This document shows positions 31,431 through 63,410 of a stretch of 64,000 nt of DNA, piece by piece. Under the pieces are notes generated by a model. It searched no databases. It saw only the letters and a program-made list of their open reading frames with translations, and was not told the DNA's origin. The translations under genes and the position numbers were made by a program. This stretch comes from Mustelus asterias (lineage: Eukaryota). The stretch lies in contig NC_135808.1 in assembly GCF_964213995.1 (NCBI RefSeq), forward strand, positions 50,220,001 to 50,284,000, written 5' to 3'. Numbering within the stretch: position 1 is the first letter of the stretch; each line of letters begins with the position of its first letter.

Positions 31431-31440
31431 TGTGTGGGGG

Positions 31441-31468
31441 GGTTTTTGTAAGGCTCTGTATCACTGTG
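31441..31468 (-). other. 12-spacer recombination signal sequence 3' of V
   Basis: CACAGTG + atacagagcctt (12 nt) + ACAAAAACC, perfect consensus; V-12/J-23 is the kappa configuration. Confidence 0.97.
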
Positions 31469-31766
31469 TAGGGGTAGCTGCTATGTTGCAGACAGTAATA
31501 ATCAGCGACATCCTCATTCTGTACATTGCTGATTGTCAGGGTGAATCTTGTCCCAGATTGACTCCCACTGAATCGGTCGGATATTCCTGTGAATCGAGTT
31601 GCTGCATTATAGATCAGCAGAGCCGGTTTCTGTCCTTCTCGCTGTTGGTACCAATTCACGTAATTGCTAACAGATTGACTGGCCGTACAGGTGATGGTGG
31701 CGGTCTGGCCCAGGCTCACTGACAGCACCGGGGGAGACTGGGTCATGATGATGTCTCCACTGATAC
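31469..31766 (-). CDS. IGKV: Ig kappa-type (NS4-like) V exon, germline unrearranged, open frame
   Basis: Polypyrimidine-CAG acceptor; [23 protein letters not shown]...WYQQ...RFSGS...DVADYYC with canonical Cys/Trp/Cys; resembles shark NS4 kappa V. Confidence 0.96.
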
Positions 31767-31952
31767 CTGAGGGGTAATAGAGAAACAGAGTGAAGTAAGA
31801 ACTGTCACAGAAAGACGCTGTACAATGAGATATTGTTGGAGACACTGACTGTTCCTCTCCTTTCAGTATTTTCCCTTCAATCACAAGTCAGGAGAATTGG
31901 ATTGAAATGGAGAGCAGGAAAATATTAAAGGTGGAAGGAGAGAGATTTGTAC

Positions 31953-32001
31953 CTGCGATGCAGAATGCCAGAGGCCAGAGCAGCTGGATGGCTGAAATCA
32001 T
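31953..32001 (-). CDS. Ig kappa-type light chain leader exon, cluster 1 (MISAIQLLWPLAFCIA-G)
   Basis: ACC-ATG start, 16 hydrophobic codons plus 1 nt, then a GTACAA donor (phase 1); 186-bp intron to the V exon. Confidence 0.93.
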
Positions 32002-32060
32002 GGTGTGTGGTCGTGTCCCTGTGCCTGGTTACTGATAAACTCTCCCTTCACTGGGCTCTG

Positions 32061-32155
32061 CTTTATAAAGCTGCAGCCTGTCAGAGTCTCACTGCCTGTT
32101 CCTCAGTTTGTAAATGGTCTGACCCAGAGAAACCACGTCAGCACCTTTCACTTCC
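32061..32155 (-). promoter_or_regulatory. V promoter, cluster 1
   Basis: GGAAGTGAAA (Ets-IRF composite), TGACGTGG, octamer-like ATTTACAA and TATAAA ~65 nt upstream of the ATG; conserved in cluster 2. Confidence 0.7.
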
Positions 32156-33306
32156 TCTTCTTCTCTCTCCCTCCCTCAGTCTCTGTCTCTCTCACTCTCT
32201 CTGTATCTGTCCATCAGTCTCTGCCCCTCTCTGTCTGTCTCCCTGTCTTTCTCTCCTTGCCTTGCACCATTTCTGCTATCTCTCTTTCCCTACCGCTCTT
32301 TCCGTCTCTCTTCCTCTCTCACTTTCTTTCTCAGTTGTCCCTCTGTCTATTCATTTCCCCAGAAGAGACACCACCCTCCTGGTATCCACTCTGTCAGTCC
32401 CCTCACAATCTGATATGATTCAATAAGATCACCTCCCATCCTTCTAAACTCCAATGGGTCCAACCTGTCCAACTTTTCTTCACAAGATAACCCCTCACCC
32501 CAGGAATGTGTCGAGTGAATCTTCTCTGAACTGCTTCCAACACAATGATATCCTTTTCCAAATAAGGAGACCTAAACTGTACACAGTATTCCAGATGTGG
32601 TCTCACCGAGACCCTGTACAGCTGCAGTAAAACTTCCCTATTTTTATATTCCATTCTCCTTGTAAGAAACACCAACATTCCATTTCTCTTCCTAATCACT
32701 TGCTGTAGCTGCAGACTAACTTGTTGTGATTCATGTCCCAGGACAGCCAGATCCCTCTGTAGCACCGAGTTGTGCAATCTCTCTCCATTTCAATAGTTTA
32801 CTGCTGTTCTATTCTTCCTGCCAAAGTGGACACCTTCACATTTACCCAGGATATACTCCAAATGTTTAGCCACTCACTTCCTCTGTCCCTATCCCTTTGC
32901 AGACTCTCTACCTCCTCTTGATAACTTACTTTCCCACCTATCTTAGTGTCATTGGGACATCAGCTCCATTCACTCCCTTCATCCAAGTCATTGATATGGA
33001 TTGTGAATAGTTGTGGTCCCAGCACTGATTGTTCCAGAATTCCACTAATTACACCTTGCCAACCCCAAAACAATCATTTATCCCCTCTTTCTGGTTTCTG
33101 TTAGTTAGCTAACCAATCCTCTATCAATGCTAATATATTGCCCACACACCATGAGCTCGTATCTTGTGTGGTAACATTTGATGTGGTCATATATTAAATA
33201 CCTTTTGGAATTCTGTGTACATCACATCTACAAGTTCCTCTTTATCCACTTTGTGACTTCCTCAAAGGTGGACAATCACACATTTAGCATAAAGAAACTG
33301 CTCCTC

Positions 33307-33600
33307 GGGTGGTACAGTGGTCAGCACTGCTGCCTCATAGCGCCGGGGACCCGGTTTCAATTCCCAGCTTGTGTCACTGTCTGTGTGGAGTTTACACCTT
33401 CTCCCTGTGTCTGCGTGGGATTCCTCTGGATGCTCCGGTTTCCTGTCACAGACGAAGGATGTACAGGTTAGGTGAATTCGCCATGCCAACTTCTCCCTCA
33501 GTGTACCTGAACAGTCGCTGGAGTTTGGTGACTCGGGAATTTTCACAGTAACTTCATTGCAGTGTGAACGTAAGCCTACTTGTGACTAATAAATAAACTT
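33307..33600 (+). mobile_element. tRNA-derived SINE, left-arm specific
   Basis: SINE head and AATAAATAAACTTT tail; absent at ~60800. Confidence 0.8.
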
Positions 33601-33634
33601 TGCTTTTACTTTACATCCACCATGGTGTCCATGT

Positions 33635-34880
33635 CCCACTGGTGCCTCCAATAGGGACCAGTAAACATGGGCCTCCATCCCACTGGAGCCTCCAGTAGGG
33701 ACCAGTAAACATGGGCCTCCTTCCCACTGGAGCCTCCAATAGGGACCAGTAAACATGGGCCTCCTTCCCACTGGAGCCTCCAATAGGGACCAGTAAACAT
33801 GGGCCTCCTTCCCACTGGAGCCTCCAGTAGGGACCAGTAAACATGGGCCTCCTTCCCACTGGAGCCTCCAGTAGGGATCATAGAGGTTTACAGCATGGAA
33901 ACAGGCCCTGCGGCCCAACTTGTCCATGCCGCCCTTTTTGTTTTACAACCCCTAAACTAATCCCAATTGCTGTATTTGGCCCATATCCCTTTATACCCAT
34001 CGTACCCATGTAACTATCTAAATGCTTTTTAAAAGATAAAATTGTACCCGCCTCTACTACTACCTCTGGCAGCTTGTTCCAGACACTCATCACCCTCTGT
34101 GTGAAAAAATTGCCCCTCTGGACACTTTTGTACCTCTCCCCTCTCACCTTAAATCTATGCCCTCTAGTTTTAGATTCCCCTACCTTTGGGAAAAGATTTT
34201 GACTATCTACCTTGTCTATGCCCCTCATTATTTTATAGACCTCTATAAGGTCACCCCTCAACCTCCTACACTCCAGAGAAAAAAGTCCCAGTCTATTCAG
34301 CTTCTCCTTATAACTCAATCCATCAAGTCCCGGTAGCATCCTCATAAATCTTCCCTGCACTCTTTCTAGTTTAATAATATCCTTTCTATAATAGGGTGAC
34401 CAGAATTGCACACAGTATTCCAAGTGTGGCCTTACCAATGTCTTGTACAACTTCAACAAGACGTCCCAACTCCTGTATTCAATGTTCTGACCGATGAAAC
34501 CAAGCATGCTGAATGCCTTCTTCACCACTCTGTCCACCTGTGACTCCACTTTCAAGGAGCTATGAACATGTACCCCTAGATCTCTTTGTTCTGTAACTCT
34601 CCCCAACACCCTACCATTAACTGAGTAAGTCCTGTCCTGGTTCAATCTACCAGAATGCTTCACCTCGCATTTGTCTAAATTAAACTCCATCTGCCATTCG
34701 TCAGCCCAATTGAACAAGATCCCGCTGCAATTGGAGATAACCTTCCTCACTGTCAGTAAACATGGGCCTCCTTCCCACTGGAGCCTCCAGTAGGGACCAG
34801 TAAACATGGGCCTCCTTCCCACTGGAGCCTCCAATAGGGACCAGTAAACATGGGCCTCCTTCCCACTGGAGCCTCCAGTA
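33635..34880. repeat. 44-bp minisatellite split by a CR1 insertion
   Basis: Unit gggaccagtaaacatgggcctccttcccactggagcctccagta at 33635-33877 and 34753-34880. Confidence 0.9.
33878..34752 (-). mobile_element. CR1 3' fragment, left-arm specific
   Basis: CR1 ORF2 C-terminus; absent from the paralogous array. Confidence 0.92.
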
Positions 34881-36604
34881 GCTGAGCTTCAAACTCCACA
34901 TCCTCTCCATCACGTAAGCCTCTTATTTCCATCTCCACAACATTTTCCGTCTCTACACTACACCAGTCCCGTGAGCACAGTAACCTTAGCCCATTTGTCC
35001 CACCCCCTAACTCCAATATTCCAATATCCTCTTCTGGCTCCCTTCATCCATGCTCCATAAACTCCAACTTGTCCCAAATGCAGTGGGTCCGGACCCTGTC
35101 TCACACAAAGTGTCATTCCAACACTACCCCTGACCTCACTGACCTATGACCCCTGACCTCATTGCCCTTCAATTCTCTCCATGGACTCACTCCTCCCTAC
35201 CTCTGCGTCCTGCTGCAGACTCACATTCCCTCCCTCGCCTTCCATCTGCTGACTCTGTTCTCCTGCCCATCGCTGCTTCCTTCATCCCACCACTGACAGC
35301 AGAGTCTTCAGACGCTCAGGCCTTGCTCTCTGACCTCCCACCCTTAATCCCTCCCCTCTCCAAGTCTCTCCCTCCATCAAACTCCACCCTTTCACCCAAG
35401 CCTTCGATCTCTCTTCGTAATGTGCCCCGTGCCCTCCCCCATTCCTCTTACTGCTGCTCTTTGAAACATCTTTGAATGTTTCATACATTAAGGTGCTATA
35501 TAAATTCAGGTTTTATGTGGATTTTGGTTGGGGACATAATTGCACACGGTATTGAAGGCTTCTGCAGTCAAATATCCTGCTGACGGGATCCAGATTTCAA
35601 CACACAGAATGAGACATTGCATAAAGTAGGAATTATTCAAAATGTATTCATTGACGGGGTGTGGGTGTCACTGGTTATACCAGCATTTATTGCCCATCCC
35701 TAATTGCCCTTGAGAAGGTGGTGATAAGCTGCCTTCTTGAACTCAGTCCATGAGGTGTACATACACCCACAGTGCTGTTAGGGAGGGAGTTCCAGGATTT
35801 TGACCCAGCGACAGTGAAGAAACGGTGATGTATTTCCAAGTCAGAATGGCGTGTGGCTTGGAGGGAAACCTCTTGGTGGTGTTGATCTGCTGCTTTTGTC
35901 TTTCCAGATGGCAGTGCTCATGTGTTTGGAAGGTGCTGCCTCTGGAACCTTGGTGAATTTATGCAGGGTACCTTATAGATGCTACACATTGCTGCCACTG
36001 TTTGACAGTGGTGGAGGGATTTAACGTTTGCGAATGTGATGCTAATCAAGCGGGGCTACTTTGTCCTGGATGGTGTTGAGCTTCTTGAGTGTTGCTGGGA
36101 GCTCTACTCATCCAGACAAGTGGAGAGTATTCCATCACACTCCGGACTTGTGCCTTGTAGATGGTGGACAGGCTTTGGAGAGTCAGGATGTGAGTTACTC
36201 ACCGCAGGATTCCTATCCACTGACCTGCTCTTGTAGCCACAGTATTTATAGGCTGGTCCAGTTGAGTTTCTGGTCAATCATATCCAACAGGATTTTACAG
36301 TGGGGGATTCAGCAATGGTAATGACATTGAATGTCAAGGGGAGATGTTAAAATTCTCTCTTGTTGGAGATGGTGATTCCGTGGCACTTGTGTGGCACGAA
36401 TGTTCCTGCTTCAATATCTGAGGAGTTGTGAATGGTGCTGAGCATTGTGCAATCGTCAGTGAACATCCCCACTTCTGAAGGTTATTAATGAAGCAGCTGA
36501 AGATGGTTGTGTCTCAGACACTACCCTGAGGAACTCCTGCAGTGATGTCCCAAGGCAATCTCAGATAGAAATCCTATAACCACAACCATCTTCTCATCAT
36601 ATTG

Positions 36605-36880
36605 GGTGGCGCAGCGCCAGGGACCCGGGTTTGATTCCTCTTGGGTCACCGTCTGTATGGAATCTGCATGTTCTCCCTGTGTCTGTGTGGGTTTCCTCCG
36701 GGAGCTCCGGTTTCCTCCAACAGTCCAAAGGACGTGCTGGTTTAGGTGCATGCTAAATTCTCCCTCGGTGTACCCGAACAGGCGCCGCCAAGTGTGGCAA
36801 CTACAGGATTTTCACAGTAACTTCATTGCAGTGTTAATGTAAGCCTATTTGTGACACTAATACTGACACTTAAACTTTAA
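36605..36880 (+). mobile_element. tRNA-derived SINE, left-arm specific
   Basis: SINE body flanked by duplicated aaatcc(t/a)ataaccacaaccatcttc. Confidence 0.8.
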
Positions 36881-37423
36881 AATCCAATAACCACAACCAT
36901 CTTCCTTTGTGCTGGGTGTGACTCCAGCCAGTGGAGAGTTTTCCCCTGATTCCCATTGGCTCCAGTTTTGCTGGGCTCCTTGATGCCACACTCGGTCAAA
37001 TGCTGCCTTGGTGTCAAGGGCAGTCACTCTCACCTCACCTCTGGGGTTCAGCTCTTTTGTCCATGTTTGAACCAAGGCTGTAATGAGGTCAGGAGCTGAG
37101 TGACCCTGGCGGAACCCAAACTGAACATCAGTGAGCAGGTTGTTGCTAGTAAGTGCCGCTTGATAGAACTGTCGACAAATTAAATCACTTTACTGATGAT
37201 TGAGAGTAGCCTGATGGGGCGGTAAGTGGCCAGAATAGATTTGTCCTGTTTTTTGGTATACAGGACATACCTGGGCAATTTTCCACATTGCCGGGTAGAT
37301 GCCAGTGTTGTAGCTGTACTGGAACAGCTTGGCTCAGGGCGCGGCAAGTTCTGGAGCACACGTCTTCACGACTATTGCTGGAATATTGTCAGGATCCAGA
37401 GTTTTTGCAGTATCCATTTGTAA

Positions 37424-38541
37424 ATGTATCAAAGAACAAGAACAAAGAACAAAGAACAGTACAGCACAGGAAACAGGCCCTTCGGCCCTCCAAGCCTGTG
37501 CTGCTCCTTGGTCCAACTAGACCAATCGTTTGTATCCCTCCATTCCCAGGCTGCTCATGTGACTATCCAGGTAAGTCTTAAACGATGTCAGCGTGCCTGC
37601 CTCCACCACCCTACTTGGCAGCGCATTCCAGGCCCCCACCACCCTCTGTGTAAAAAACATCCCTCTGATGTCTGAGTTATACTTCGCCCCTCTCAGCTTG
37701 AGCCCGTGACCCCTCGTGATCGTCACCTCCGACCTGGGAAAAAGCTTCCCACTGTTCACCCTATCTATACCCTTCATAATCTTGTATACCTCTATTAGAT
37801 CTCCCCTCATTCTCCGTCTTTCCAAGGAGAACAACCCCAGTCTACCCAATCTCTCCTCATAGCTAAGACCCTCCATACCAGGCAACATCCTGGCAAACCT
37901 TCTCTGCACTCTCTCCAATGCCTCCACGTCCTTCTGGTAGTGCGGCGACCAGAACTGGACGCAGTACTCCAAATGTGGCCTAACCAGCGTTCTATACAGC
38001 TGCATCATCAGACTCCAGCTTTTATACTCTATACCCCGTCCTATAAAGGCAAGCATACCATATGCCTTCTTCACCACCTTCTCCACCTGTGTTGCCACCT
38101 TCAAGGATTTGTGGACTTGCACACCTAGGTCCCTCTGTGTTTCTATACTCCTGATGACTCTGCCATTTATTATATAACTCCTCCCTACATTATTTCTTCC
38201 AAAATGCATCACTTCGCATTTATCCGGATTAAACTCCATCTGCCACCTCTCCGCCCAATTTTCCAGCCTATCTATATCCTGCTGTATTGCCCGACAATGC
38301 TCTTCGCTATCCGCAATTCCAGCCATCTTCGTGTCATCCGCAAACTTGCTGATTACACCAGTTACACCTTCTTCCAAATCATTTATATATATCACAAATA
38401 GCAGAGGTCCCAGTACAGAGCCCTGCGGAACACCACTGGTCACAGACCTCCAGCCAGAAAAAGACCCTTCGACCACTACCCTCTGTCTCCTATGGCCAAG
38501 CCAGTTCTCCACCCATCTAGCCACTTCTCCTTGTATCCCAT
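37424..38541 (-). mobile_element. CR1 3' fragment, left-arm specific
   Basis: Open RT frame with FADD; (TTCTTTG)n tail; empty site at ~57730. Confidence 0.92.
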
Positions 38542-38846
38542 GCCTTATCTTTTGCACTGATGTGCTGGATTCCTCCATCACTGAGAATGGGGATATTTAT
38601 GAAGCCTCCTCCTCCAGTGAGTTGTTTAATTAATGGTGTCCACCAACATTCACGGCAGAGCTTTGCCCTGATCCATTGGTTGTGGGATGGTTTAGTTCTA
38701 TCACGTGCTGCTTCTACTGTTTGACACACAGTCCTGTGTTGAAGCTTCACCAGGTTAACACCTCATTTTACAATTTATCTGCTGTTGCTCCTGGCATGCC
38801 CTCCTGCACTCTTCATTGAATCAGGGTTGATTCCCTGGCTTGGTGG

Positions 38847-39375
38847 TAGGGAGGCCAGATGTCCGGCTTTAGGCCGGACAGTCCGGCTTTTGAGCACTCT
38901 GTCCTCCATCCGGCGCCACCTCGAGCCGGACGCTAATTTGTCCTCCTTTTTTGGGTCACAATGCCCGGGTACTGATTGATGACAGCACCGGGCCAATAGG
39001 AAGAGGAGTGGGACTGCCAATTGGATCGAATGAGGGAAGGTGGAGCTGTGCGTCGATTTAAGCCTGCGCAGTGCGAGTCATGGGGAGGCAGATCAGGGTT
39101 TATCTCTTGTATTGACAAACGGTAAGAGGAAAATGGCGGAGATCAGGGAGCGATAAATCTGGAGGATGATGAAGAAGGCTTTATAAGCATGTTGTACAAG
39201 TCCAAACCCCGAAAAAGAGTTTCCCGATGTCATATTTGCACCGAGCCAGGCCACAGCTCCAATGTTCAGCTCCGCATTAACGGCCGCCATCTTAATTGGA
39301 TGCGATATGCAGCAGTGCGCATGCGCGGCTGCCATCTTTGTCCTCCTTTTTGGAAATTTGGAAATGGCCACCCTA
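38847..39375. mobile_element. hAT-like non-autonomous DNA transposon
   Basis: TAGGGAGGCCA...TGGCCACCCTA termini, 8-bp TSD CTTGGTGG; empty site in the paralogous arm at ~57410. Confidence 0.88.
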
Positions 39376-39680
39376 CTTGGTGGTAATGGTAGAGTGGGGG
39401 ATATGCCGGGCCATGAGGTTACAGATTGTGGTTGAGTACAATTCTGCTGCTGCTGATGGCCCACAGTGCCTCATGGATGCCCAGTTTTGAGTTGCTAGAT
39501 CTGTTTGAAATCTATCCCATTTAGCACGGTGGCAGTGCCACACAACACGATGGAGGGTACCCTCAATGTGAAGATGGGATTTTATCTCCACAAGGACTGT
39601 GCAGTGGTCACTCCTACCGATACTGTCATGGACAGATGCATCTGCGGCAGGCAGGTTGGTGAAGATGAGGTCAAGTATGT

Positions 39681-40365
39681 ACAAGTATAGATACATAATT
39701 CCCTAAAAGTGGTGTCACAGGTAGATAGGGTCGTAAAGAGTGCTTTTGGTACATTGGCCTTTATAAATCAAAGTATTGAGTATGAGAGTTGGAATGTTAT
39801 GGTGAGGTTGTATAAGACATTGGTGAGGCCGAATTTAGAGTATTGTGTGTAGTTTTGGTCACCTAATTACAGGAAGGATATTAATAAGGTTGAAAGAGTG
39901 CAGAGAAGGTTTACAAGGATGTTGCCGGGACTTGAGAAACTGAGTTACAGAGAAAGGTTGAATAGGTTCGGACTTTGTTCCCTGGAGCGTAGAAGAATGA
40001 GGGGAGATTTGATCGAGGTGTATAAAATTATGATGGGTATAGATAGAGTGAATGCAAGCAGGCTTTTTCCACTGAGGCTAGGGGAGAAAAAAACTCGAGG
40101 ACATGGGTTAAGGGTGAAGGGGGAAAAGTTTAAAGGGAATATTAGGGGGGGGCGTCTTCACACAGAGAGTGGTGGGAGTGTGGAATGAGCTGCCACATGA
40201 AGTGGTGAATGCGGACTCACTTTTAACATTTAAGAAAAACATGAGAGGGGTGTGGAGGGATATGGTCCAGGTGCAGGTCAGTGGGACGAGGCAGAAAAAT
40301 GGTTTGGCACAGCCAAGAAGGGCCAAAAGGCCTGTTTCTGTGCTGTAATGTTCTATGGCTCTATG
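39681..40365 (+). mobile_element. CR1 3' fragment, left-arm specific
   Basis: CR1 C-terminus; empty site at ~57113. Confidence 0.9.
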
Positions 40366-41819
40366 TTTCTCCCTCTTGTTGGTTCCCTCCCCACCTGCCG
40401 CAGTCCCAGTCTAGCAGCTATGTCCTTTAGGACCCGGCCAGCTCGGTGTGTGGTGGTGCTACCGAGTAACTCTTGGTGATGGACATTGAAGTCCCCACCC
40501 AGAGTACATTCTGTGCCCGAGCCACCCTCAGTGCTTCATCCAAGTGCTGTTCAACATGGAGGAGAACTGATTCACCAGCTGAGGGTGGACGGTATGTGGT
40601 AACCAGGGGAGGTTTCCTTGTCCATGTTTGACATGTTACCGAGAGACTACATGGAGTCTGGAATGTTGTTGAGGATTCCCTGGATAACTCCCTCCTGACT
40701 GTATCCCACTGTGCCTTCTGTGCTGGGAGATTGGAGGTAGTGGACACGGTTCACCATTTTCTCCCGTCTCAGTAACAAACATCCAGCTGCTCTGAGCTCC
40801 TTCTTTCACTTCCTCTGTTGGTTACGTTTCAATCTTCCGATCTGACAGTCTTTGCAGTTATTTTTGACATTGGGGATTTGTGCTGTGGTCTGAATCTCTA
40901 ACAATAACTGTCCAATCAGTGAAAAGAACAGCAGCTCAGAGCAGTCAGGACTGAGGAGCCAGGCTCACTGGGAAACACATTGGGAAGATCAAAGCCATTG
41001 GTCTTCAGCTCCCGATACAAACTCCATCCCTCCCCCTGAGCACTGTCTGCTGCTCAACCAGACTCTCTACAACATTGGCCTCATCTTTGACGCCGATCTG
41101 ACCCTCCAAATCCTCCACATCACAAAGATTACTCTGCTCTCTCTTTCTTAGATCCAAAGTGGATGTTTTCACATTCTCCACATTGAACTCTATCTTCCAT
41201 TGTCTTCAGACCCCATCACAAACTCTGTTCCCTCAACACTGATTCCATCCCTTCCCCATTGGAGTGTCTGACACTGAACCACACACTCCACAGCCATGGT
41301 GTCCTATTTGACCCTGAGATGAGTTTCCCACCACATCATCCACTCCATCACTAAGACCACCTAGTTCCACCTCAGTAACATCTCCCGAGTACCCCCTGCC
41401 TCACATCATCCTCTGCTGAAAATCTCATCTGTGTCTTTGTTACCTCTGAACGTTACTATTCCAATGCTGTCCTGTCCGACCTCACACCCACCACCTCCGT
41501 TATCATCAGCTCACCCAGAACTCTGCTGCCCGGATCTGAACTCACACCAAATCCCGTTCACCCGTCACCCCCTGTGTTCACTGACCTACACTGACCCCCG
41601 GTCCAGCCATGCCCCGATTTTAACATAAACATCCTGCCTCTCAAATCCCTCCCTATCTTGCACCCTCCCTATCTCTGTAACCTCCTCTAAGCTGCCTAAC
41701 TTAGTGTGCTCAGTAATCTTGGATATGTGTCTCTCTATTGCTTCATCCAAGTCATTGACAAATATAGTGAAAAGCTGAGGCTTCAGCACAGACCCCTGGG
41801 GACATCACTATTCTTAGAA

Positions 41820-42170
41820 CATAGAATCATAGAAATCATAGAAACCCTACAGTGCAGAAGGAGGCCATTCGGCCCATCGAGTCTGCACCGACCACTATCC
41901 CACCCAGGCCCTATCCCCACATATTTTACCTGCTAATCCCTCTAACCTACACATCCCAGGACTCTAAGGGGCAATTTTTTAACCTGGCCAATCAACCTAA
42001 CCCGCACATCTTTGGACTGTGGGAGGAAACCGGAGCACCCGGAGGAAACCCACGCAGACACGAGGAGAATGTGCAAACTCCACACAGACAGTGACCCGAG
42101 CCGGGAATCGAACCCAGGACCCTGGAGCTGTGAAGCAGCAGTGCTAACCACTGTGCTACCGTGCCGCCCC
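41820..42170 (-). mobile_element. HE1-like SINE
   Basis: Full head and CR1-type tail. Confidence 0.85.
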
Positions 42171-42171
42171 A

Positions 42172-43335
42172 CATAGAACAGTACAGCACAGAACAGGCCC
42201 TTCGGCCCACGATGTTGTGCCGAGCTTTGTCTGAAACCCAGATCAAGCTATTTCCTCCCTATCATCCCGAAGTACTCCATGTGCCTATCCAATAGCTTCT
42301 TAAATGTTCCTAAAGTTTCTGACTCCACTATCCCTGCAGGCAGTCCATTCCACACCCCAACCACTCTGAGTAAAAAACCTACCTCGGACATCCTTCCTAT
42401 ATCTCCCACCATGAACCCTATAGTTATGCCCCCTAGTTACCGTTCCATTCACCCGAGGAAATAGTCTTTGAACGTTCACTCTATCTATCCCCCTCATCAT
42501 CTTATAAACCTCATCAAGGCTCCTCTCAACCTCCTCCGCTCCAAAGAGAAAAGCCCAAGTTCCCTCAACCTTTCCTCATAAGACCTACCCTCCAAACCAG
42601 GCAGCATCCTGGTAAATCTCCTTTGCACTCTTTCCAGTGTCTCCACAACCTTCTTGTAGTGAGGTGACCAGAACTGCACACAATATTCCAAATGTGGTCT
42701 CACCAAGGTCCTGTACAGTTGCATCATAACCCCACGGCTCTTAAACTCAAACCCCCTGTTAATGAACGCCAACACACTATAGGCCTTCTTCACGGCTCTA
42801 TCCACTTGAGTGGCAACCTTCAGAGATCTATGGATATGAACCCCAAGATCTCTCTGTTCCTCCACATTCTTCAGAACCCTATCTTTGACCCTGTAATCCA
42901 CATTTAAATTTGTCCTACCAAAATGAATCACCTCGCATTTGTCAGGGTTAAACTCCATTTGCCATTTTTCAGCCCAGCTCTGCATCTTATCTATATCTCT
43001 TTGCAGCCTACAACAGCCCTCCACCTCATCCACTACTCCACCAATCTTGGTGTCATCAGCTAATTTACTGATCCACCCTTCAGCCCCCTCCTCGAAGTCA
43101 TTAATAAAAATCACAAAGAGCAGAGGGCCAAGCACTGATCCCTGTGGCACTCCGCTAGCAACCTGCCTCCAATCGGAAAATTTTCCATCCACCACCACCC
43201 TCTGTCTTCGATCAGACAGCCAGTTACCTATCCAATCGGCCAACTTTCCCTCTATCCCACACCTCCTCACTTTCATCATAAGCCGACCATGGGGGACCTT
43301 ATCAAACGCCTTACTAAAATCCATGTATATGACAT
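42172..43335 (-). mobile_element. CR1 3' fragment (same subfamily as 14770-16253)
   Basis: Near-identical RT peptide. Confidence 0.92.
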
Positions 43336-43744
43336 CAATTCCAGCATCGGGTGCCTGTGTGGAGTTTGCATGTTCTCCCCGTGTCTGAGTGGGTTTCCTC
43401 CGGGTGCTCTGGTTTCCTCCCACAGTCTAACGATGTGCAGGTTAGATTGATTGGCCATGCTAAATTGCTCCTTAGCGTCAGAGGGACTAACAGGGTAAAT
43501 ACATGGGGTCACGGGGACAGGGCCTGGGTGGGATTGTTGTTGGCGCAGGCTCGATGGGCTGAATGGCCTAGTTCTGCACTGTAGGGATTCTATGATTCTA
43601 TGATTAGACAGGATGGAATTTGTAAAGTGATTCCAGGAGAGCTCTTTGCGTCAGTACGTCGACAATCCGACTCGGGATGAGCCAGTGCTCGATCTAATCC
43701 TCGGGAATGAAGCCGGGCAAGTTGTTGAAGTGTCAGTGGGGATG

Positions 43745-51028: not shown

Positions 51029-51232
51029 GTAGGCACGGTAAGTAGTCTCACAACACCAGGTTAAAGTCCAACAGGTTTATTTGATAGCACGAGCTTTCGG
51101 AGCGCCGCTCTTTCATCAGGTGATGAAGGAACAGCGCTCCGAAAGCTCGTGCTACCAAATAAACCTGGTGGATTTTAACCTGGTGTTGTGAGACTACTTA
51201 CTGTGCCTACCCCAGTCCCACGCTGGCAACAC
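51029..51232. mobile_element. Penelope-like palindromic terminal-repeat insertion
   Basis: ~180-bp inverted repeat 51029-51210 flanked by direct repeat CACAGAATGC. Confidence 0.75.
51088..51123 (-). ncRNA. Minimal type I hammerhead ribozyme motif
   Basis: CAC-CUGAUGA-aaGAGCggcGCUCc-GAAA-GCUC-GUG: core boxes, stem II, palindromic AGCU stem III, CAC/GUG stem I. Confidence 0.65.
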
Positions 51233-52610: not shown

Positions 52611-53403
52611 TGTTAAGAATTGGGGAAAATGAAAATAAACAAATGACATTGGGATAAAAGAAAATAAATCAGGGAGATGTCTGAAGAGATGTTGAGATGT
52701 GAATTGGCATCTCAGTGAGAAAAGCAAGTGTTTACTGAGGTACCTGAGGAAAGCAATGGGGTTTAGAAAAGATAACTTCAAAGTGGAAGGATAAGGAAAT
52801 CGACACGGAAATGCCCAAAGCCGATTCCACAGGGTGGGTAACATCAAAGGGAAAGAATGATATATCCATAGCACAGTGACTGGGGAAAAGGGGAGACAGA
52901 CACAGACACAGCTAACATCAGCACACACTCAGCTGCAGAAACAGTCTCCTGAAAAGAAGCAGCAGGTTTCACCTTCACGAAACTGAAGACAATTTTCCCG
53001 AACGCTGACACATAACCTGTGTGTGGTAATTATTCACTGGATTTAGCTCACAGAGTTACATAATATTGGATGTTGTTTTGGAACAAAGGGACATCTCAGT
53101 GTTCAGGAAATGTAGGTGATTGAGAACAAAGGGGTAGCTTCATGTAATAGTGTGTGTGTCTAGCCCTCAGTGTAGTTAAATATATTGTCGTGTATTATAG
53201 AGCTTGTGTGTTTTTTTTCTTTTACCTGGATGAATATTCTGTATTAATTGTTCACACAAAGACTGGACTATTTCTCCCTGGTTCACACACTTTTCCTCAC
53301 AGGATACCAGAGTGAAAATCGACACCACTAAGAACCAATGTTCCATGTTCCCATTCTGAGCTTTGAGATCCTCTCACATTTAACATCAGCGCGGTTCTTA
53401 ACA
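52611..53403. mobile_element. Solo LTR
   Basis: TGTTAAGAA...TTCTTAACA inverted termini flanked by 4-bp TSD CCTC. Confidence 0.8.
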
Positions 53404-55199
53404 CCTCAAACAACATTCTCTTCTCTGGAAAGTAACTCTGGAGATTGTTGCTGGTGATGTTTACATTTTAAAATGATTCCAGATCTGAATAGTTTTGTTG
53501 TTGAGCTGCCTGCTTTAACTCTGATACAAGTTACATTTCTGACAAACTTCAAGCTTTCGGGTTTATATTTTGGGAAGAGACAAACACATTTTAAACTCTT
53601 CCTTCAGCACAGAAGCTTTCAGCATCTGGATTTGTGTCAATTGTTGTCAAACCTTTTAAAATAAACATTTCCTGTTGAGAACTCGATCAGGACCCAAAGC
53701 TCAAATCTTTAAACTTTGTAAGAATTATAATTTCCACTTTCAAAACTGAAACTCCCTTTTCTTGATGTGTGTGACTTTGTATCCAGATTGAAAATCCCAC
53801 ATGTTTATCAACACATGTTGGTGGTGTTGTGGATAGTTTGGAGGGATGTCAGAAGCTGCAGCGTGACATAGATAGGATGCAAGACTGGGCGGAGAAGTGG
53901 CAGATGGACTTCAACCCGGATAAATGTGTAGTGATCCATTTTGGCAGGTCAAATGGGATGAAGGAGTATAATATCAAGGGTAAGACTCTGAGCAGTGTAG
54001 AGGATCAGAAGGACCTTGGGGTCCGGGTCCATTGGACTCTTAAATCGGCCTCACAGGTAGAGGAGGTGGTTAAGAAGGCATATAGTGTGCTGACCTTCAT
54101 CAATCGAGGGACTGAGTTTAGGAGTCCGGGGATAATGATGCAGCTATATAAGACCCTTGATCAGTGTGTCCATATCAGACCTCTTGTCCCCAAGCAAAAG
54201 ATACCATTGGCCCTGAAGGGGTTAAATCATTTTCTTTCAACATAAAGTAAAGGTTCTAAACCAATGTGCAAACTCCACACAGACAGTGACCCAAACCGGG
54301 AATCAAACCCAGGTCCCACTGTGCCACCTGGTTCTAAACCATGACCATGCTGTGGGAATAAAAATCTTCAGATCAATTCTCAGAGTCTTAATGCTGTCGG
54401 CAATCTTGTTCCATTTGTGGTTCTCTGAAAATAAAGACACAAGGTCCATTCTGCTCAGGGGAATGGATTCAGCAATCTGAAAGTTTAAGCAGTTGTTGCA
54501 AAGAGTTCACTCTGTGTTCGTCTGCAAGAGGCTGCTGCAAAGCTGCTTCATTTTCAACACAGAGAAAAGCTGGTGTATCTTTAGAGAACAATCAAACTCT
54601 GCTTTCTGGACAGAAATCTCAACTCAAACCTCATAACTTCAAACTTTGCTTTGTTTCATTATATTGTCCTTGAATCCAACTCATTATCCACATTGTGAAG
54701 CTTCAAATTGCTGAAACTTCACACACAAATGAGAAATTAGGGAAGGAAACACATGAAAGCTCACACACACAAATTCTTCATTGTACACAAACACACACAC
54801 ATAGAAAGATATGTATATTTCCATTCTGATAACAATTATATGAACAACATTAAACTTTCCGACTCAAAACAAAGCTACAAGTAGTAGTGGAGGGGGTGGG
54901 AGGAATCTTGGAGACTTCCACCGACAGGAACAATCTAAACAGCCGAAGCTCCCATTTCCTCAGTCCCTGCCTGTCACTGCTCAAGAACGCCCCGAGGGGA
55001 ACCCTCTCGGTCTGTCACTCACTTGCCCTCTCTCATGCTCTCGCTCCCTCTCTCTCTCTCTGTGTCTCTCACGATCTCTCTCTCTCTCTCTCCTGGATTA
55101 AAGCTTTAGCGATTTGCAGCAAATGAATTCATTTTCACCTTTTTAATTGTTTGAAACAATTCAGTGAGTGACATTTTGAGTCCCCAATCTACATTTTTC

Positions 55200-55975
55200 C
55201 CTCTCACTCACTACACTTGACACCAGGAAACGGTTAATACCATTTTACTGCACTGTGTCACTCACTACACCTGTCACTAGGAAACGGTCAATACTGTTTT
55301 ACTGCACCGTGTCTCTCACTACACCTGTCACTAGGAAACGGTCGATACTGTTTTACTGCACTGTGTCACTCACTACAGCTGTCACTAGGAAACTGTCAAT
55401 ACTGTTTTACTGCACTGTGTCACTCACTACAGCTGTCACTAGGAAACTGTCAATACTGTTTTACTGCACTGTGTCACTCACTACAGCTGTCACTAGGAAA
55501 CTGTCAATACTGTTTTACTGCACTGTGTCTCTCACTACACCTGTCACTAGGAAACGGTCGATACTGTTTTACTGCACTGTGTCACTCACTACACCTGTCA
55601 CTAGGAAACGGTCAATACTGTTTTACTGCACCGTGTCACTCACTACACCTGTCACTAGGAAACGGTCAATACTGTTTTACTGCACTGTGTCACTCACTAC
55701 ACCTGTCACTAGGAAACGGTCAATACTGTTTTACTGCACTGTGTCACTCACTACACCTGTCACTAGGAAACGGTCAATACTGTTTTACTGCACCGTGTCT
55801 CTCACTACACCTGTCACTAGGAAACGGTCAATACTGTTTTACTGCACTATGTCTCTCACTACACCTGTCACTAGGAAACGGTCAATACTGTTTTACTGCA
55901 CTGTGTCACTCACTACACCTGTCACTAGGAAACGGTCAATACTGTTTTACTGCACTGTGTCTCTCACTACACCTG
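55200..55975. repeat. 54-bp minisatellite (~14 units)
   Basis: Unit cactgtgtcactcactacacctgtcactaggaaacggtcaatactgttttactg. Confidence 0.95.
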
Positions 55976-56779
55976 AAATGGGGTGAATGAAATGATTTGA
56001 CTGAGATTGAAGTTAAAACATTCATTATTAGCTAGAGAATGGACAAATGTAGAGATGAAGGCATGATGGGAAATTGAGCCAATGTTATTGGAATGAACAA
56101 GGTCACTGAATCTTCAAATCCCAGCCCAGCCCTTCAGGGGTGAGATCAGGAAACACTTCGTCACTTGGAGACTGGTGGAAATCTGGAACTTTCTCCCTGA
56201 AAAAAAGCTGTTGAGGCTGCGGGGGAGCCAATTGAAAATGTTCAAACTGAGCTTCCTCCATCTGTCTCTACTATCCCCAAGTCTTTGCCTCTTCTCTCAC
56301 TGTTTGTGAAAACTCTCCTGTGTAGTCAGCTCATTCCGATTCCCGGGGGAAGAGGCTGGTCTTTGTGATGTGGAGGATTTGGGGGAGGTCAGATCGGGGT
56401 CAAAGATGAGGCCAATGTTGTAGAGAGTCTGGTTGAGCAGCAGACAGTGCTCAGGGGGAGGGATGGAGTTTGTATCGGGAGCTGAAGACCAATGGCTTTG
56501 ATCTTCCCAATGTGTTTCCCAGTGAGCCTGGCTCCTCAGTCCTGACTGCTCTGAGCTGCTGTTCTTTTCACTGATTGGACAGTTATTGTTAGAGATTCAG
56601 GCCACAGCACAAATCCCCAATGTCAAAAATAACTGCAAAGACTGTCAGATCGGAAGATTGAAACGTAACCAACAGAGGAAGTGAAAGAAGGAGCTCAGAG
56701 CAGCTGGATGTTTGTTACTGAGTCGGGAGAAAATGGTGAACCGTGTCCACTACCTCCAATCTCCCAGCACAGAAGGCAC

Positions 56780-59280
56780 AGTGGGATACAGTCAGGAGGG
56801 AGTTATCCTGGGAATCCTCAACAACATTCCAGACTCCATGTAATCTCTCAGTAACATGTCAAACATGGACAAGGAAACTAAATACCGTAACCCCCTCAGC
56901 TGATGAATCAGTTCTCCTCCATGTTGAACAGCACTTGGATGAAGCACTGAGGGTGGCTCGGGCACAGAGTGTACTCTGGGTGGGGACTTCAATGTCCATC
57001 ACCAAGAGTTACTCGGTAGCACCACCACACACCGAGCTGGCCGGGTCCTAAAGGACATAGCTGCTAGACTGGGACTGCGGCAGGTGGTGAGGGAACCAAC
57101 AAGAGGGAGAAACATACTCGACCTCATCCTCACCAACCTGCCTGCCGCAGATGCATCTGTCCATGACAGTATCGGTAGGAGTGACCACCGCACAGTCCTT
57201 GTGGAGATAAAATCCCATCTTCACATTGAGGATCCCCTCCATCGTGTTGTGTGGCACTGCCACCGTGCTAAATGGGATAGATTTCAAACAGATCTAGCAA
57301 CTCAAAACTGGGCATCCATGAGGCACTGTGGGCCATCAGCAGCAGCAGAATTGTACTCAACCACAATCTGTAACCTCATGGCCCGGCATATCCCCCACTC
57401 TACCATTACCACCCAGCCTGGGGATCAACCCTGGTTCAATGAAGAGTGCAGGAGGACATGGCAGGAGCAACAGCAGATGTACTGAAAAATGAGGTGTTAA
57501 CCTGGTGAAGCTACAACACAGGACTGTGTGTCAAACAGCAGAAGCAGCAAGTGATAGACAGAGCTAAACCATCCCATAACCAATGGATCAGATCTAAACT
57601 CTGTAGTCCTGCCATATCCAGCCGTGAATGGTGGTGGACAATTCAACAACTCACTGGAGGAGGAGGCTCCACAAATATCCCCATCCTCAATGATGGCGGA
57701 ACCCAGCACATTAGTGGAAAAGATAAGGCTGATACTGCAATGACTCTGGGTCCCGATAATAATCCAGCAATAGTCCTGAAGACTTGTGCTCCAGAACTTC
57801 CCTTGTCCCCAGCCAAGCTGTTCCAGTACAGCTACAACACTGGCATCTATCCGGAAATGTGGAAAATTGTACAGGTATGATCTGTATACCAAAAAACAGG
57901 ACAAATCTATTCTGGCCAATTCCCGCCCCATCAGTCTACTCTGCATCATCAGCAAAGAGATTGATAGAACTGTCGATGACACATTCTAACAGCTGTAATC
58001 AGCAATAACCTGCTCAGTGACACTCAGTCTGGGCTCCACCAGGGTCACTCAGCTCCTGACCTCATTACAGCCTTGGTTCAAACATGGACAAAAGAGCTGA
58101 ACCCCAGAGGTGAGGTGAGAGTGACTGCCCTTGACATCAAGGCAGCATTTGACCGAGTGTGGCATCAAGGAGCCCTCGTAAAACTGGAACCCATGGAAAT
58201 CAGGGGAAAACTCCACTGGTTGGAGTCACACCCAGCACAATGGTAGATGGTTGTGGTTCTAGGATTTCAATCTGAGATTGCCCCAGGACATCACTGCAGG
58301 AGCTCCTCAGGGTAGTGTCCTCGGCCCAACCATCTTCAGCTGCTTCATCAATGACCTTCCCTCCATCATAAGGTCAGAAGTGGGGATGTTCGCTGATGAC
58401 TGCACAATGTTCAGCACCATTCACAACTCCTCAGATCCTGAAGCAGTCTATGTCCAAATGCAGCAAGATCTGGACAATATCCAGGCTTGGGGTGACAAGT
58501 GGAAAGTAACAATCACACCTCGCAAGTGCCAGGCAAGGACCATCTCCAACAAGAGAGAATTTTAACATCTCCCCTTGACATTAACTGTCATTACCATCGC
58601 TGAATCCCCCACTATTAACATCCTGGTTGTTATGATTGACCAAAAGCTGAACAGGAAAAGCCATATAAATACTGTGGTTACAAGAGCAGGTCAGTGGTTA
58701 GGAATTCTGTGGAGAGCAACTCACCTCATGGCTCCCCAAAGCCTGCCCACCATCTACAGAGCACAAGTCAGGAGTGTGATGGAATACTCTGGACTTCCCA
58801 GGATGAGTGCAGCTCCAACAACACTCAAGAAGCTCAACATCATTCAGGACAAAGCAACCTCGCTTGATTGATTCCCCTTCCACTAACATTCAATTCCTCC
58901 AGCACTATTGAACAGTGGCAACCGTGTGTACCATCTACAAGATGCCCTGCATGAACTCACCAAGGTTCCTGAGGCAGCACCTTCCAAACCCACAACCACT
59001 ACTAACTGGAAAGATGCAGATCCCTGGGAACACAACCACCCGGAGATTCCCCTCCAAGTCCCTCACCATCCTGACTTGGAAATATAGTGCCATTCCTTCA
59101 CTGTCGCTGGGTCAAAATCCTGGAACTGCCTCCCTAACAGCACTGTGGTTGTGCCTACACCTCATGGACTGCAGCGGTTCAAGAAGGCAGCTCACCACCA
59201 TCTCCTCAGGGTAATTAAGGATGGGCAATAAATGCTGGTGTAGCCAGTGACACCAACTTCCCGTGAATGAATAAATTATT
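56780..59280 (+). mobile_element. Degenerate non-LTR retrotransposon of a second CR1/L2-like family (paralog at 35650-40720 minus; other pieces at 6795-7412, 25216-26430, 51600-52570)
   Basis: Endonuclease motifs LDLILTN...SDH; PQGSVLGPTIFSCFINDL..MFADD. Confidence 0.8.
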
Positions 59281-60409
59281 AAAAAGTTCTACATTACACA
59301 ATGTCCCATTCTGTGTGTTGAACTCTGGAACCTGTCGGCAGGATATTTGACTGCAGGAGCCTTCACCAGTGTCCAATTCTCACCCCAACTGAAATCCACA
59401 CAGAACCTGAATTTATATAGCACCTTAGTGTACAACACAGCCCAAGATGTTTCACAGAGCTGCAGTAAGGAATAGGGGTGGGAGGGGGTGGGGGTGGAGG
59501 AACGTTAAGAGGAGAGATTGAAGACTTGGGTGAAAGGATAGAGTTTGATGGGGAGAGAGACATGGAGAGGGGGAGGGATTAAGGGTGGGAGGTCAGAGAG
59601 TAGGGCCTGGGCGTCTGAAGGCTCTGCTGTCAATGGTGGGATGAAGGAAGCAGCGATGGGCAGGAGAACAGAGTTAGAAGATGGAAGGTGAGGGAGGGAA
59701 TGTGAGTCTGCAGAGGTAGGGAGGAGTGAGGCCATGGAGGGAATTGGAGGGCAGTGAGGTCAGGGGTAACAGGAGAGATTAAGTTAGTTAGGATTATATT
59801 CACTGAAGTTTGAGGATAAAGGGTAAACCTTTTAGAACTGAGGTGAGGAGAAATTTCTTCACCCAGAGGGTGGAGAATGTGTGGAATTCACTTTGACAGA
59901 ATGGGGTTGAGGCCAAAACTTTGTCTGATTTCAAGAAGAAATTAGATATAGCTCTTGGGACGAAAGGGATCAAGGGATATGAGAGGAAGGGGCCGGATCA
60001 GGATATTAAATTCGATGATCAGCCATGATCAAAATGAATGGTAAAGAAGGCTTGAAGGGCCGAATGGCCTACTCTTGCTTCAAGATTCTATATTCCTATG
60101 TCACTGAGGTCAAGGGTAACATGTCAGTGAGGTCAGGGGTGATGGGTCAGTGAGGTCAGAGGTAGTGTTGGAACGACACTTGGTGTGAGACAGGGTCCGG
60201 ACTCACTGCGTTTGGGACAAGTTCGGGTTTATGGAGTGTGGATGAAGGGAGCCGGGAGAGGATATCGGAATAATAGAGTTAGGAGGAGTGAGAAGCAGGG
60301 ATAAGAGTCTCTGCGCTCATGGGGCTGATGTAGTGTAGAGACGGACAATGTTGTAGAGATGGAAATAAGAGGCCTACATGATGGAGAGGATGTGAAGTTT
60401 GAAGCTCAG

Positions 60410-60785
60410 CTACTGGAGGCTCCAGTGGGAAGGAGGCCCATGTCTACTGGTCCCTATTGGAGGCTCCAGTGGGGAGGAAGCCCATGTTTACTGGTCCCTA
60501 TTGGAGGGTTCAGTGGGAAGGAGGCCCATGTTTACTGGTCCCTATTGGATGCTCCAGTGGGAAGGAGGCCCATGTTTACTGGTCCCTATTGGAGGGTTCA
60601 GTGGGGAGGAAGCCCATGTTTACTGGTCCCTATTGGAGGGTTCAGTGGGGAGGAAGCCCATGTTTACTGGTCCCTATTGGAGGGTTCAGTGGGGAGGAAG
60701 CCCATGTTTACTGGTCCCTATTGGAGGGTTCAGTGGGGAGGAAGCCCACGTTTACTGGTCCCTATTGGAGGCTCCAGTAGGACAT
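60410..60785. repeat. 44-bp minisatellite, uninterrupted paralogous copy
   Basis: Reverse complement of the array at 33635-34880. Confidence 0.9.
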
Positions 60786-62103
60786 GGACACCATGGTCGA
60801 TGTGGAGCAGTTTCTTTATGTTATAAATGTGTGATTGTTCACTTTTGAGGAATTCACAAAGTGGGTGAAGGGAACTTGTAGATGTGATATTTAGGGAATT
60901 CCAAAAGGTATTTGATAAATTGCCACATCAAATCTTGCTACACAAGATACAAGCTGATGGTGTGTGGGTAACATATTAGCATTAATAGAGGATTGGTTAG
61001 CGAACAGAGACCAGAGAGAGGGGTAAATGATTGTTTTGGGGTTGGGAAGCTGTAATTAGTGGAATTCTGGAACAATCAGTGCTGGGACCACAACTATTCA
61101 CAATCCAGATCAATGACTTGGATGAAGGGAGTGAATGGAGCTGATGTCCCAATGACAGCAGCATGGTCAGTGCAGGCTTAGAGGGTCGAAGGGCCTGTTC
61201 CTGTGCTGTAATTTTCTTTGTTTTTTGACACTAAGATAGTTGGGGAAAGTAAGTTATCAAGAGGAGATAGAGAGTCTGCAAACAGATGGAAACAAGGGAA
61301 GTGAGTGGCTAAACATTTGGAATATAACTGCGTAAATGTGAAGGTGTCCACTTTGGCAGGAAGAATAGAACAGCAGGAAACTATTGAAATGGAGAGAGAT
61401 TGCACAACTCGGTGCTACAGAGGGATCTGGCTGTCCTGGGACATGAATCACAACAAGTTAGTCTGCAGCTACAGCAAGTGATTAGGAAGACAAATGGAAT
61501 GTTGGTGTTTATTACAAGGAGAATGGAATATAAAAATAGGGAAGTTTTACTGCAGCTGTACAGTGTCTCGGTGAGACCACATCTGGAATACTGTACATTT
61601 TGGTCTCCTTATTTGGAAAAGGATATCATTGTGTTCGAAGCAGTTCAGAGAAGATTCACCCGACACATTCCTGGGGTGAGGGGTTATCTTATGAAGAAAA
61701 GTTGGACAGGCTGGGCCTGAACCCATTGGAGTTTAGAAGAATGAGAGGTGATCTTATTGAAACATATCAGGTTGTGAGGGGACTGACAGAGTGGATACCA
61801 GGAGGGTGGTGTCTCTTCTGGGGCAGAGTGAGATGAGTGGACAGATGGATAGAAGTGCTGGAGAGAAAGTGATGGAGAAGGAGAGCTGAACTGAGGAAGA
61901 GAGAGGGAGAGAATGATAAGAGAGAAAGAATGAGTGAAGGAGAGGGCAAAGAAGGAGAATAAGACAGGAACAACAAGAGAGAGAGACCGAGAGAGGGGGA
62001 ACAGAGAGAGGGGGAACAGAGAAGGGTGAATAGAGAGAGCGGGAGCAGAGACTGAGGGACAGAGACTGAGGGACAGAGACTGAGGGAGGGAGAGAGAAGA
62101 AGA

Positions 62104-62198
62104 GGAAGTGAAAGGTGCTGACGTGGTTTCTCTGGGTCAGACCATTTACAAACTGAGGAACAGGCAGTGAGACTCTGACAGGCTGCAGCTTTATAAAG
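62104..62198 (+). promoter_or_regulatory. V promoter, cluster 2
   Basis: Same motif string as the cluster 1 promoter, in reverse complement. Confidence 0.7.
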
Positions 62199-62257
62199 CA
62201 GAGCCCAGTGAAGGGAGAGTTTATCAGTAACCAGGCACAGGGACACGACCACACACC

Positions 62258-62306
62258 ATGATTTCAGCCATCCAGCTGCTCTGGCCTCAGGCATTCTGCA
62301 TCGCAG
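62258..62306 (+). pseudogene. Leader exon of V-deleted cluster 2 (MISAIQLLWPQAFCIA-G)
   Basis: Matches the cluster 1 leader except CTG>CAG (L>Q); GT donor intact; intron truncated at ~62439 and fused to the minisatellite that lies 3' of the V-RSS in cluster 1. Confidence 0.9.
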
Positions 62307-62439
62307 GTACAAATCTCTCTCCTTCCACCTTGAATATTTTCCTGCTCTCCATTTCAATCCAATTCTCCTGACTTGTGATTGAAGGGAAAATGCTGAAAGG
62401 AGAGGAACAGTCAGTGTCTCCAACAATATCTCATTGTAC

Positions 62440-63035
62440 CACCTCCTGTACTGACACATCCCACAGTTTTATATAATATATAATAATGGACACACAGTCC
62501 CACCTCCTGTACTGACACATCCCACAGTTTTATATAATATATAATAATGGACACACAGTCCCACCTCCTGTACTGACACATCCCACAGTTTTATATAATA
62601 TATAATAATGGACACACAGTCCCACCTCCTGTACTGACACATCCCACAGTTTTATATAATATATAATAATGGACACACAGTCCCACCTCCTGTACTGACA
62701 CATCCCACAGTTTTATATAATATATAATAATGGACACACAGTCCCACCTCCTGTACTGACACATCCCACAGTTTTATATAATATATAATAATGGACACAC
62801 AGTCCCACCTCCTGTACTGACACATCCCACAGTTTTATATAATATATAATAATGGACACACAGCACCACCTCCTGTACTGACACATCCCACAGTTTTATA
62901 TAATATATAATAATGGACACACAGTCCCACCTCCTGTACTGACACATCCCACAGTTTTATATAATATATAATAAAGGACACACAGTCCCACCTCCTGTAC
63001 TGACACATCCCACAGTTTTATATAATATATAATAA
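62440..63035. repeat. 61-bp minisatellite, expanded copy (~10 units)
   Basis: Same unit in reverse complement. Confidence 0.95.
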
Positions 63036-63336
63036 AGACAAGAAAGGAAACTGGACAAATTATTTGCACTGTCCACTACACACTCCAGTCCCTGTGGTGT
63101 CCACCGCTCGCTGAAGGCCTCGAGTTTCCCTCTTACTCTCCATGTCCACATATGAAGAGCAGCTGAAAGATTTATCATCTCAAATTAGAATTCTCAACTC
63201 TCCCGACAAAACACTGAGACATTGAGAGAAACAGAGAGAGAGAAACAGAGAGAGAGAAAGAGTGAGAGAGAAAGAGTGAGAGAGAAAGAGTGAGAGAGAA
63301 GAGATGAGTGAGTGAGTGAGTGAGGCAGAGAGCAGA

Positions 63337-63375
63337 GGTTTTTGTACAGCTCCTGCACTGGAAGCTGTCAGTGTG
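63337..63375 (+). other. 23-spacer RSS 5' of J, cluster 2
   Basis: GGTTTTTGT + 23 nt + CAGTGTG, identical to cluster 1. Confidence 0.95.
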
Positions 63376-63410
63376 CCTTACGTTCGGTAAAGGAACCAAA
63401 CTCAGACTGA
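63376..63410 (+). CDS. IGKJ: Ig kappa-type J segment, cluster 2 (LTFGKGTKLRL)
   Basis: Identical to the cluster 1 J, with GTAAGT donor. Confidence 0.95.

Follow-up and report, generated by a model that had tools for sequence, protein, structure and literature searches.

A candidate germ-line signal joint between two copies in the head-to-head immunoglobulin kappa array of Mustelus asterias

Can the immunoglobulin (Ig) light-chain clusters of a shark recombine with one another? The question is raised by a window of 64,000 bp in the Mustelus asterias genome (contig NC_135808.1, below C8; C8:50220001-50284000), in which two Ig kappa clusters lie head to head. One is complete, with a variable segment (V1), a joining segment (J1) and a constant exon (C1); the other has a leader, a joining segment (J2) and, beyond the window, a constant exon (C2), but no V. 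A sequence-only reading of the window had proposed that V1 could join J2 by a ~32-kb inversion and that the V-less cluster acts as a spare J-C acceptor. Shark V(D)J joining is described as intra-cluster only in the pertinent sections of several reviews (PMC5192425, PMC8355894, PMC12227049), a view that rests on Ig heavy-chain (IgH) data from miniloci at least 120 kb apart, as set out in parts of PMC2435157 and PMC2191167. Zimmerman et al. attribute the restriction, where they discuss sharks, to long distance and same polarity (PMC3014032). The kappa array has neither property: its clusters are close together and of opposite polarity. We scanned 0.96 Mb around the locus as tiles and named the units c01-c22, the V1 cluster being c03 and the J2 cluster c04. 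On balance, we favour a reading in which the locus is a compact array of 21 J-C clusters, 18 of them with a V, in which the V-less clusters are likely pseudogenes, unit c07 likely records a germ-line RAG join between copies, and inversion in B cells would be a minor event.

The evidence for joining between copies lies ~120 kb past the window. Within the tiles, the scan found 41 recombination signal sequences (RSSs): 18 at V segments, 21 at J segments and two extra ones, fused to each other inside c07 (C8:50402750-50402816, fusion point 50402777/8; loci L019/L091). The fusion runs heptamer to heptamer and unites one 23-spacer and one 12-spacer RSS, with no bases lost or inserted, as in a signal joint. 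A genome-wide pattern search that allowed 0-12 inserted bases returned a single match, in c07, and the reversed control pattern returned none. In transcription order the unit reads V-12-IVSa-23 / 12-IVSb-23-J-C, where the two intervening sequences (IVSs) measure 628 bp (IVSa) and 1425 bp (IVSb). A partial J match of 47 bp at the joint is the one extra J match in the array.

The two sides of the joint have different relatives. IVSa is the c11 IVS letter for letter, the V coding sequences of c07 and c11 differ by one base, and 6 kb of upstream sequence differs by six substitutions. After J, successive 1.5-kb blocks of c07 and c11 show 21, 58, 56, 6 and 16 differences (135 in the first 4.5 kb), compared with 3, 4, 10, 8 and 0 between c11 and c13. 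Around C, c07 differs from c11 at 66 positions in about 4.4 kb and c11 from c13 at none in 4.5 kb. Downstream of the J heptamer, at offsets 65, 194 and 243, c07 lacks the alleles specific to c11 and c13. Four pairs of nearest neighbours qualify as twins on the V side (at most six differences in 900 bp); their J sides differ at 0 positions in c01/c09, 1 in c08/c14 and 3 in c11/c13, whereas c07/c11 differ at 11 and are not J-side twins. The four IVSb minisatellite variants that we tested are private, occurring nowhere else in the 0.96 Mb scanned, and so no intact version of the copy that supplied IVSb is present in the assembly. To judge from these comparisons, the lineage switches at the joint: the V side is c11-like and the J-C side is from another copy. 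The structure of c07 points to at least one joining of RSSs from two different copies in this array.

In the mechanism that we propose, RAG would bring together two signals: the 23-RSS of J in copy a, which is c11-like and lies upstream, and the 12-RSS of V in copy b, which lies downstream on the same strand. In a variant, the second signal would be a 12-RSS on a misaligned chromatid. The coding ends would pass to a lost circle or to the other chromatid, and with them the V-J-C coding product would be gone. The signal ends, ligated on the chromosome, would give Va-12-IVSa-23 / 12-IVSb-23-Jb-Cb in one step, so that the signal joint is retained and about one repeat unit is deleted. The reciprocal coding joint is absent from the assembly, as expected if it was excised or left on the other chromatid. 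Such a join between copies of the same orientation is most simply invoked because a single RAG step suffices, whereas circle re-insertion or inversion would each need at least one more event near the joint. Germ-line RAG activity has been established at the NS4 locus of the nurse shark in the germ-cell results of PMC2193156. Here, a germ-line origin is likely because copy b exists in the assembly in joined form only.

The same layout of V-12...23 / 12...23-J could be reached by another route, in which a small V-J circle, once excised, went back into a germ-line cluster through homologous recombination or renewed cleavage by RAG, and an ordinary crossover then swapped the flank. The array is indeed mosaic, and near C the c07 sequence again becomes similar to c11 and c13. 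This route is nonetheless unlikely. Besides the re-insertion, an additional event would have to fall no more than ~65 bp from the J heptamer or exactly at the end of V. Neither the V-RSS border nor the RSS-J border shows processing. Each of the two IVS copies is complete and differs from the other, which means that the circle must in any case have originated in another copy. Re-integration of the unit's own circle as the sole cause was rejected, since the two IVS copies and their flanks differ. In every signal-joint model, RSS-bearing DNA of two different copies took part. We consider it more improbable still that the joint is the remnant of a germ-line head-to-head inversion, with subsequent loss of the joined partner and the inverted spacer by crossover; indeed, this is the least credible of the routes. 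An inversion would produce exactly such a junction, the J-proximal IVS carries a 3-unit GAGT tract common to the plus-strand units c06, c08 and c14, and rearranged spacers do occur in the array (inverted at c17 and c18, with a flip in c21/22). However, the c07/c08 spacer is not inverted: it runs in the standard direction and aligns collinearly with that of c13/c14. There is no joined VJ, the tile scan shows no unassigned RSS close to the inversions at c17, c18 or c21/22, and at least two further events would be required. A simple germ-line inversion of c03/c04 or c07/c08 was likewise rejected, as the spacers of c01-c16 share one orientation.

Several observations weigh against a germ-line join between copies, and some of them would suit a joint that was somatic (from B-cell reads in the sequenced tissue) or made by the assembler. 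The joint is known from one assembly alone, and the region is highly repetitive. In four public contig sets (4 of 24 listed runs, shallow and with rare variants dropped) no contig spans the joint, and contigs in those sets run through both heptamer borders of c07. We nevertheless rate a somatic or artefactual origin as highly improbable. An exact heptamer fusion could hardly be created by an assembler without molecules that contain it; copy b is present only in joined form, whereas germ-line reads should dominate; no run of N lies near the joint; and the minisatellite variants private to IVSb come back at regular intervals, as errors in reads would not. Other points bear on the lineage switch. 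Units c17 and c18 differ at 3 positions on the J side, against 19 on the V side, with no signal joint, so ordinary crossover or conversion could have contributed to the switch in c07. The far border of the foreign tract is made less sharp by the C-proximal intron of c07, which is close to c11 and c13 (6-16 substitutions per 1.5 kb). Divergent alleles, instead of paralogues, are another possible identity for copies a and b, although a divergence of 1.4-3.9% within the J-C intron speaks for paralogues. Finally, shark IgH complementary DNA (cDNA) and single-cell data, as reported in sections of PMC2435157 and PMC2191167, show intra-cluster joining.

The arrangement in c07 has a close counterpart in a published model. 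Figure 2B(ii) of Lewis and Wu (2000, PMC2193153) derives V-12...23 / 12...23-J from intercluster germ-line recombination, with the junctional insertion serving as a diversity (D) segment; in c07 the insertion is 0 nt. Those authors had shark evidence for their events i and iii only (PMC2193153). If the c07 joint is germ-line, it is direct evidence for the step that lacked shark support, an intercluster signal joint as a D-segment precursor. No coding bases lie between the c07 heptamers, and only the RSS layout is D-like; the unit has the layout of the postulated D-origin intermediate with a zero-length insert and is not a D segment. It is doubtful that c07 is a nascent, zero-length D that would be re-cut by RAG for two-step V-(D)-J joining of a light chain with added junctional diversity, in an array that would join across clusters in B cells, V1-J2 inversion into the V-less clusters included, and so stand midway between the cluster and translocon types. 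Among germ-line RAG products, coding joints and a single hybrid joint were already known (PMC2193153). The hybrid joint, in horn shark IgH (Kokubu 1988, as described in PMC2193153), is like c07 a germ-line RAG product other than a coding joint; it arose by intra-cluster inversion of a D-D spacer, whereas c07 is an inter-copy signal joint. The notable results here are the array architecture and the signal joint, and the joint is a variant on known germ-line RAG activity. Contrary to the intra-cluster-only view, the array seems to preserve in its sequence the trace of one copy having been joined to another. If that join is germ-line, RAG altered cluster copy number very recently, the V side being about 0.1-0.2% from its twin. 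In a literature drawn mostly from open papers we found no description of a germ-line signal joint in sharks, nor of a shark kappa array whose clusters lie head to head; the layout may already be recorded, for example among the cluster coordinates in table S1 of PMC12227049.

We now return to the window and the inversion proposed there. On the minus strand, cluster 1 (c03) comprises leader exon L1 (31953-32001), a 186-bp leader intron, an open V1 exon with a V-set domain (31469-31766), the V1 12-RSS (31441-31468), J1 (30706-30740) and the C1 exon (23140-23468; open, 108 amino acids, C1-set domain). The J1 23-RSS (30741-30779, plus strand) has one heptamer mismatch. Between V1 and J1, which are 727 bp apart, lie a 199-N run (30819-31017) and four units of a 61-bp minisatellite (31195-31435). 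A head-to-head spacer that is asymmetric and rich in repeats (33300-60800, limits approximate) separates this cluster from cluster 2. On the plus strand of c04, the promoter is followed by leader exon L2 (62258-62306), a partial leader intron and then directly by ten units of the V-J minisatellite (62439-63035); V and its 12-RSS are gone. J2 (63376-63410) encodes LTFGKGTKLRL and has an intact GT splice donor. Its 23-RSS (63337-63375, minus strand; one heptamer mismatch, CACACTG) is identical to that of J1.

The geometry on which the inversion was proposed stands. The V1 12-RSS is an exact consensus with 0 mismatches, J2 carries its 23-RSS without a V of its own, and with cuts at 31468/9 and 63375/6 the plus strand would carry L1-V1 in front of J2, in keeping with the 12/23 rule; such an inversion would leave a signal joint beside J1. 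Only the V1, J1 and J2 RSSs in the window have at most one mismatch, and 200 base shuffles gave none. An absent or disrupted C2 would have spoken against a functional acceptor, and the exon was found intact beyond the window (C8:50290074-50290402, open, 108 amino acids), within a match at C8:50290042-50290442, 6667 bp (6.7 kb) from the J2 RSS. The head-to-head arrangement is confirmed in the sequence as well, but the pair is not special, being one of nine in the array. For V1, deletion would reach J1 at 727 bp, and inversion would reach J2 at 31,907 bp (31.9 kb) or, at 40.8 kb, the J of c02; same-strand J's lie at about 75 kb. Opposite-polarity partners are the rule across the array and not peculiar to the V-less cluster.

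How the V-less cluster arose can be read from its junction (62438-62439, plus strand). A deletion of at least 395 bp removed the end of the leader intron, V and the 12-RSS and joined the intron to the V-J minisatellite. Neither end lies at a heptamer, and microhomology amounts to up to 2 bp (AC) if the right end is the first minisatellite unit. A RAG origin of the deletion is not supported by such ends, although resection after a RAG break would also fit. The identical junction occurs in three copies, c04, c10 and c12, of which c12 differs in its minisatellite and C exon; an assembly error was rejected on these grounds. The duplications that carry the V-less copies span 48 kb, at 0.13% divergence, and 60 kb, at 0.33%, within an overall range of 0.13-0.44%. 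Units c04 and c10 differ at 61 positions in 48 kb and could be a very recent duplication. Both carry a Leu-to-Gln change in the signal peptide (Leu11Gln relative to other clusters), so that two of the three V-less copies are affected. Because the duplication is recent, intact RSS, J and C sequences would be expected without selection. The V-less cluster is probably a duplicated pseudogene. Direct splicing from L2 to C2 would be in frame and is predicted from the sequence to yield a signal peptide followed by a V-less kappa constant domain.

A working spare acceptor, joined by V1 through the 32-kb inversion and kept as a step toward combinatorial organisation, would account for the correct 12/23 geometry and for the intact RSS, J2 and C2. 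Each of the three V-less copies faces an intact V, and a J without a local 12-RSS competitor might be more open to a distant partner. There are precedents as well: in the clusters treated by PMC3014032, zebrafish inter-cluster inversions extend up to 81 kb, and the mouse data presented in PMC11153149 show that strong kappa RSSs permit orientation-independent diffusional joining. We find the proposal decidedly unlikely, however. J1 is 44 times closer to V1 than J2 is, and intactness is what recent duplication alone would give. The leader change in c04 and c10 also tells against the proposal, and J segments that are alike over their first 60 bases mean that J2 adds no J diversity. The germ line holds no record of an RSS-bounded inversion: the spacers of c01-c16 are uniform in orientation, none of the 18 V segments is joined, and no V1-J2 join is present in the assembly. 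The special role given to the V-less cluster is not supported: the cluster arose by a non-RSS deletion and was copied in duplication blocks. The suggestion that V1-to-J2 joining edits V1 is excluded, since V1-J1 joining consumes the V1 RSS and J2 cannot then act on the product. That the cluster has been kept for this inversion is improbable.

This leaves the inversion itself. B cells would mostly join V to the J of the same cluster by short deletion, with V1-J2 inversion permitted as a likely minor, unselected by-product. At low frequency such inversion is plausible, given the near-consensus kappa RSSs; that it is detectable at depth in B cells is possible, at something less than an even chance. 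The C1 and C2 exons can be told apart at positions 14, 272 and 311, although C2 is the same as the c10 C exon, and c11, c13 and c18 also have a C exon in common. With the single-nucleotide polymorphisms mapped, the question of intra- versus inter-cluster joining becomes directly testable for a light chain.

The array as a whole occupies 0.92 Mb (C8:50.17-51.09 Mb) and contains 18 V, 21 J, 21 leaders and 22 C exons. All V and C exons have open frames (18/18 and 22/22), the first 60 bases read alike in all 21 J's, and 18 of the 22 units are complete, with L-V-12RSS / 23RSS-J and a single C1-set exon in one polarity. A protein search of the genome yielded no additional close V, and the assembly holds no joined kappa V or J. 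Besides the nine head-to-head pairs there are c17 and c18, unpaired on the plus strand with inverted spacers, and c19, which faces an orphan C. Spacer orientation is uniform across the eight pairs of c01-c16, and the spacer of c21/22 looks as expected after a flip at an inverted repeat that lies inside it and is not an RSS. The leader intron is 186 bp in 17 of 18 units (593 bp in c21), and J agrees by eye with the published JL5 primer; from this intron and J match, the clusters are classed as cartilaginous-fish Ig kappa (NS4/type III). A PDB search returned generic Ig C domains and was uninformative on isotype.

Nurse shark NS4/type III (Lee et al. 2000), in the features covered by PMC2193156, resembles this array in the 186-bp leader intron, split V-12/23-J, JL5-matching J, multi-copy clusters and RAG activity in germ cells. 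The germ-line products described in that source are coding joints, whereas here no V is joined and the product is an inter-copy signal joint. Zebrafish Ig light-chain loci (Zimmerman et al. 2008), as presented in PMC3014032, also have close clusters with V and J of opposite polarity at tens of kb. In zebrafish, V often has an inverted position inside its own cluster, and cDNA documents the joins; in the shark genome sequence, the segments of any one cluster all point the same way and it is whole clusters that alternate. As in teleosts, the array has V and J segments of opposite polarity that belong to different clusters and lie no more than tens of kb apart. Diffusional V-J joining at mouse Igk (Zhang et al. 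2024, in the aspects covered by PMC11153149) likewise involves near-consensus RSSs in both orientations. Mouse Igk differs in being a translocon with one C and CTCF-based Cer/Sis elements, and RSS strength in the shark is judged from consensus match only.

Some features of the clusters and their spacers deserve brief mention. The 61-bp V-J minisatellite is AT-rich and ranges from 4 to more than 57 units, and the V-J distance varies from 628 to 3997 bp across clusters, a spread that may bias cluster usage. Leaders, promoters and J are nearly invariant, whereas the complementarity-determining regions (CDR1, CDR2 and CDR3) vary from cluster to cluster and are shared in a patchwork fashion (e.g. 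CDR1 of c02 and c16); the pattern suggests gene conversion or selection on CDRs. An extra Cys is present in CDR1 of c02 and c16. Inside the spacer of the window, 39,376-41,128 and 56,360-57,416 form an inverted repeat of 96-98% identity, and a 54-bp minisatellite has 14 copies (55204-55975); the latter has grown to many kb in the c21/c22 spacer (C8 about 51.06-51.07 Mb). The orphan C exon, c20o (C8:50977540-50977940, plus strand), is intact without L, V or J. Repeat-flanked insertions precede the ~340 bp of intron left to it, and with this intron and no RSS nearby it is not supported as a RAG product.

In the stretch that separates the C exons of c02 and c03, which lie tail to tail, the window contains what we take to be a broken retrovirus-like element (8,500-13,500, plus strand, and about 17,100-18,100). 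By eye, the list of open reading frames shows fragments presumably of gag (with a zinc knuckle), protease, reverse transcriptase, RNase H, integrase and an env-like piece. A second Ig light-chain-like array lies elsewhere in the genome (C13:60.08-61.41 Mb), with 18 V matches at 40-52% identity, many of them about 19 kb apart on one strand. Germline-joined VJ segments have been described for shark lambda/type II, and all three of the C13 segments inspected are germline-joined VJ without an RSS.

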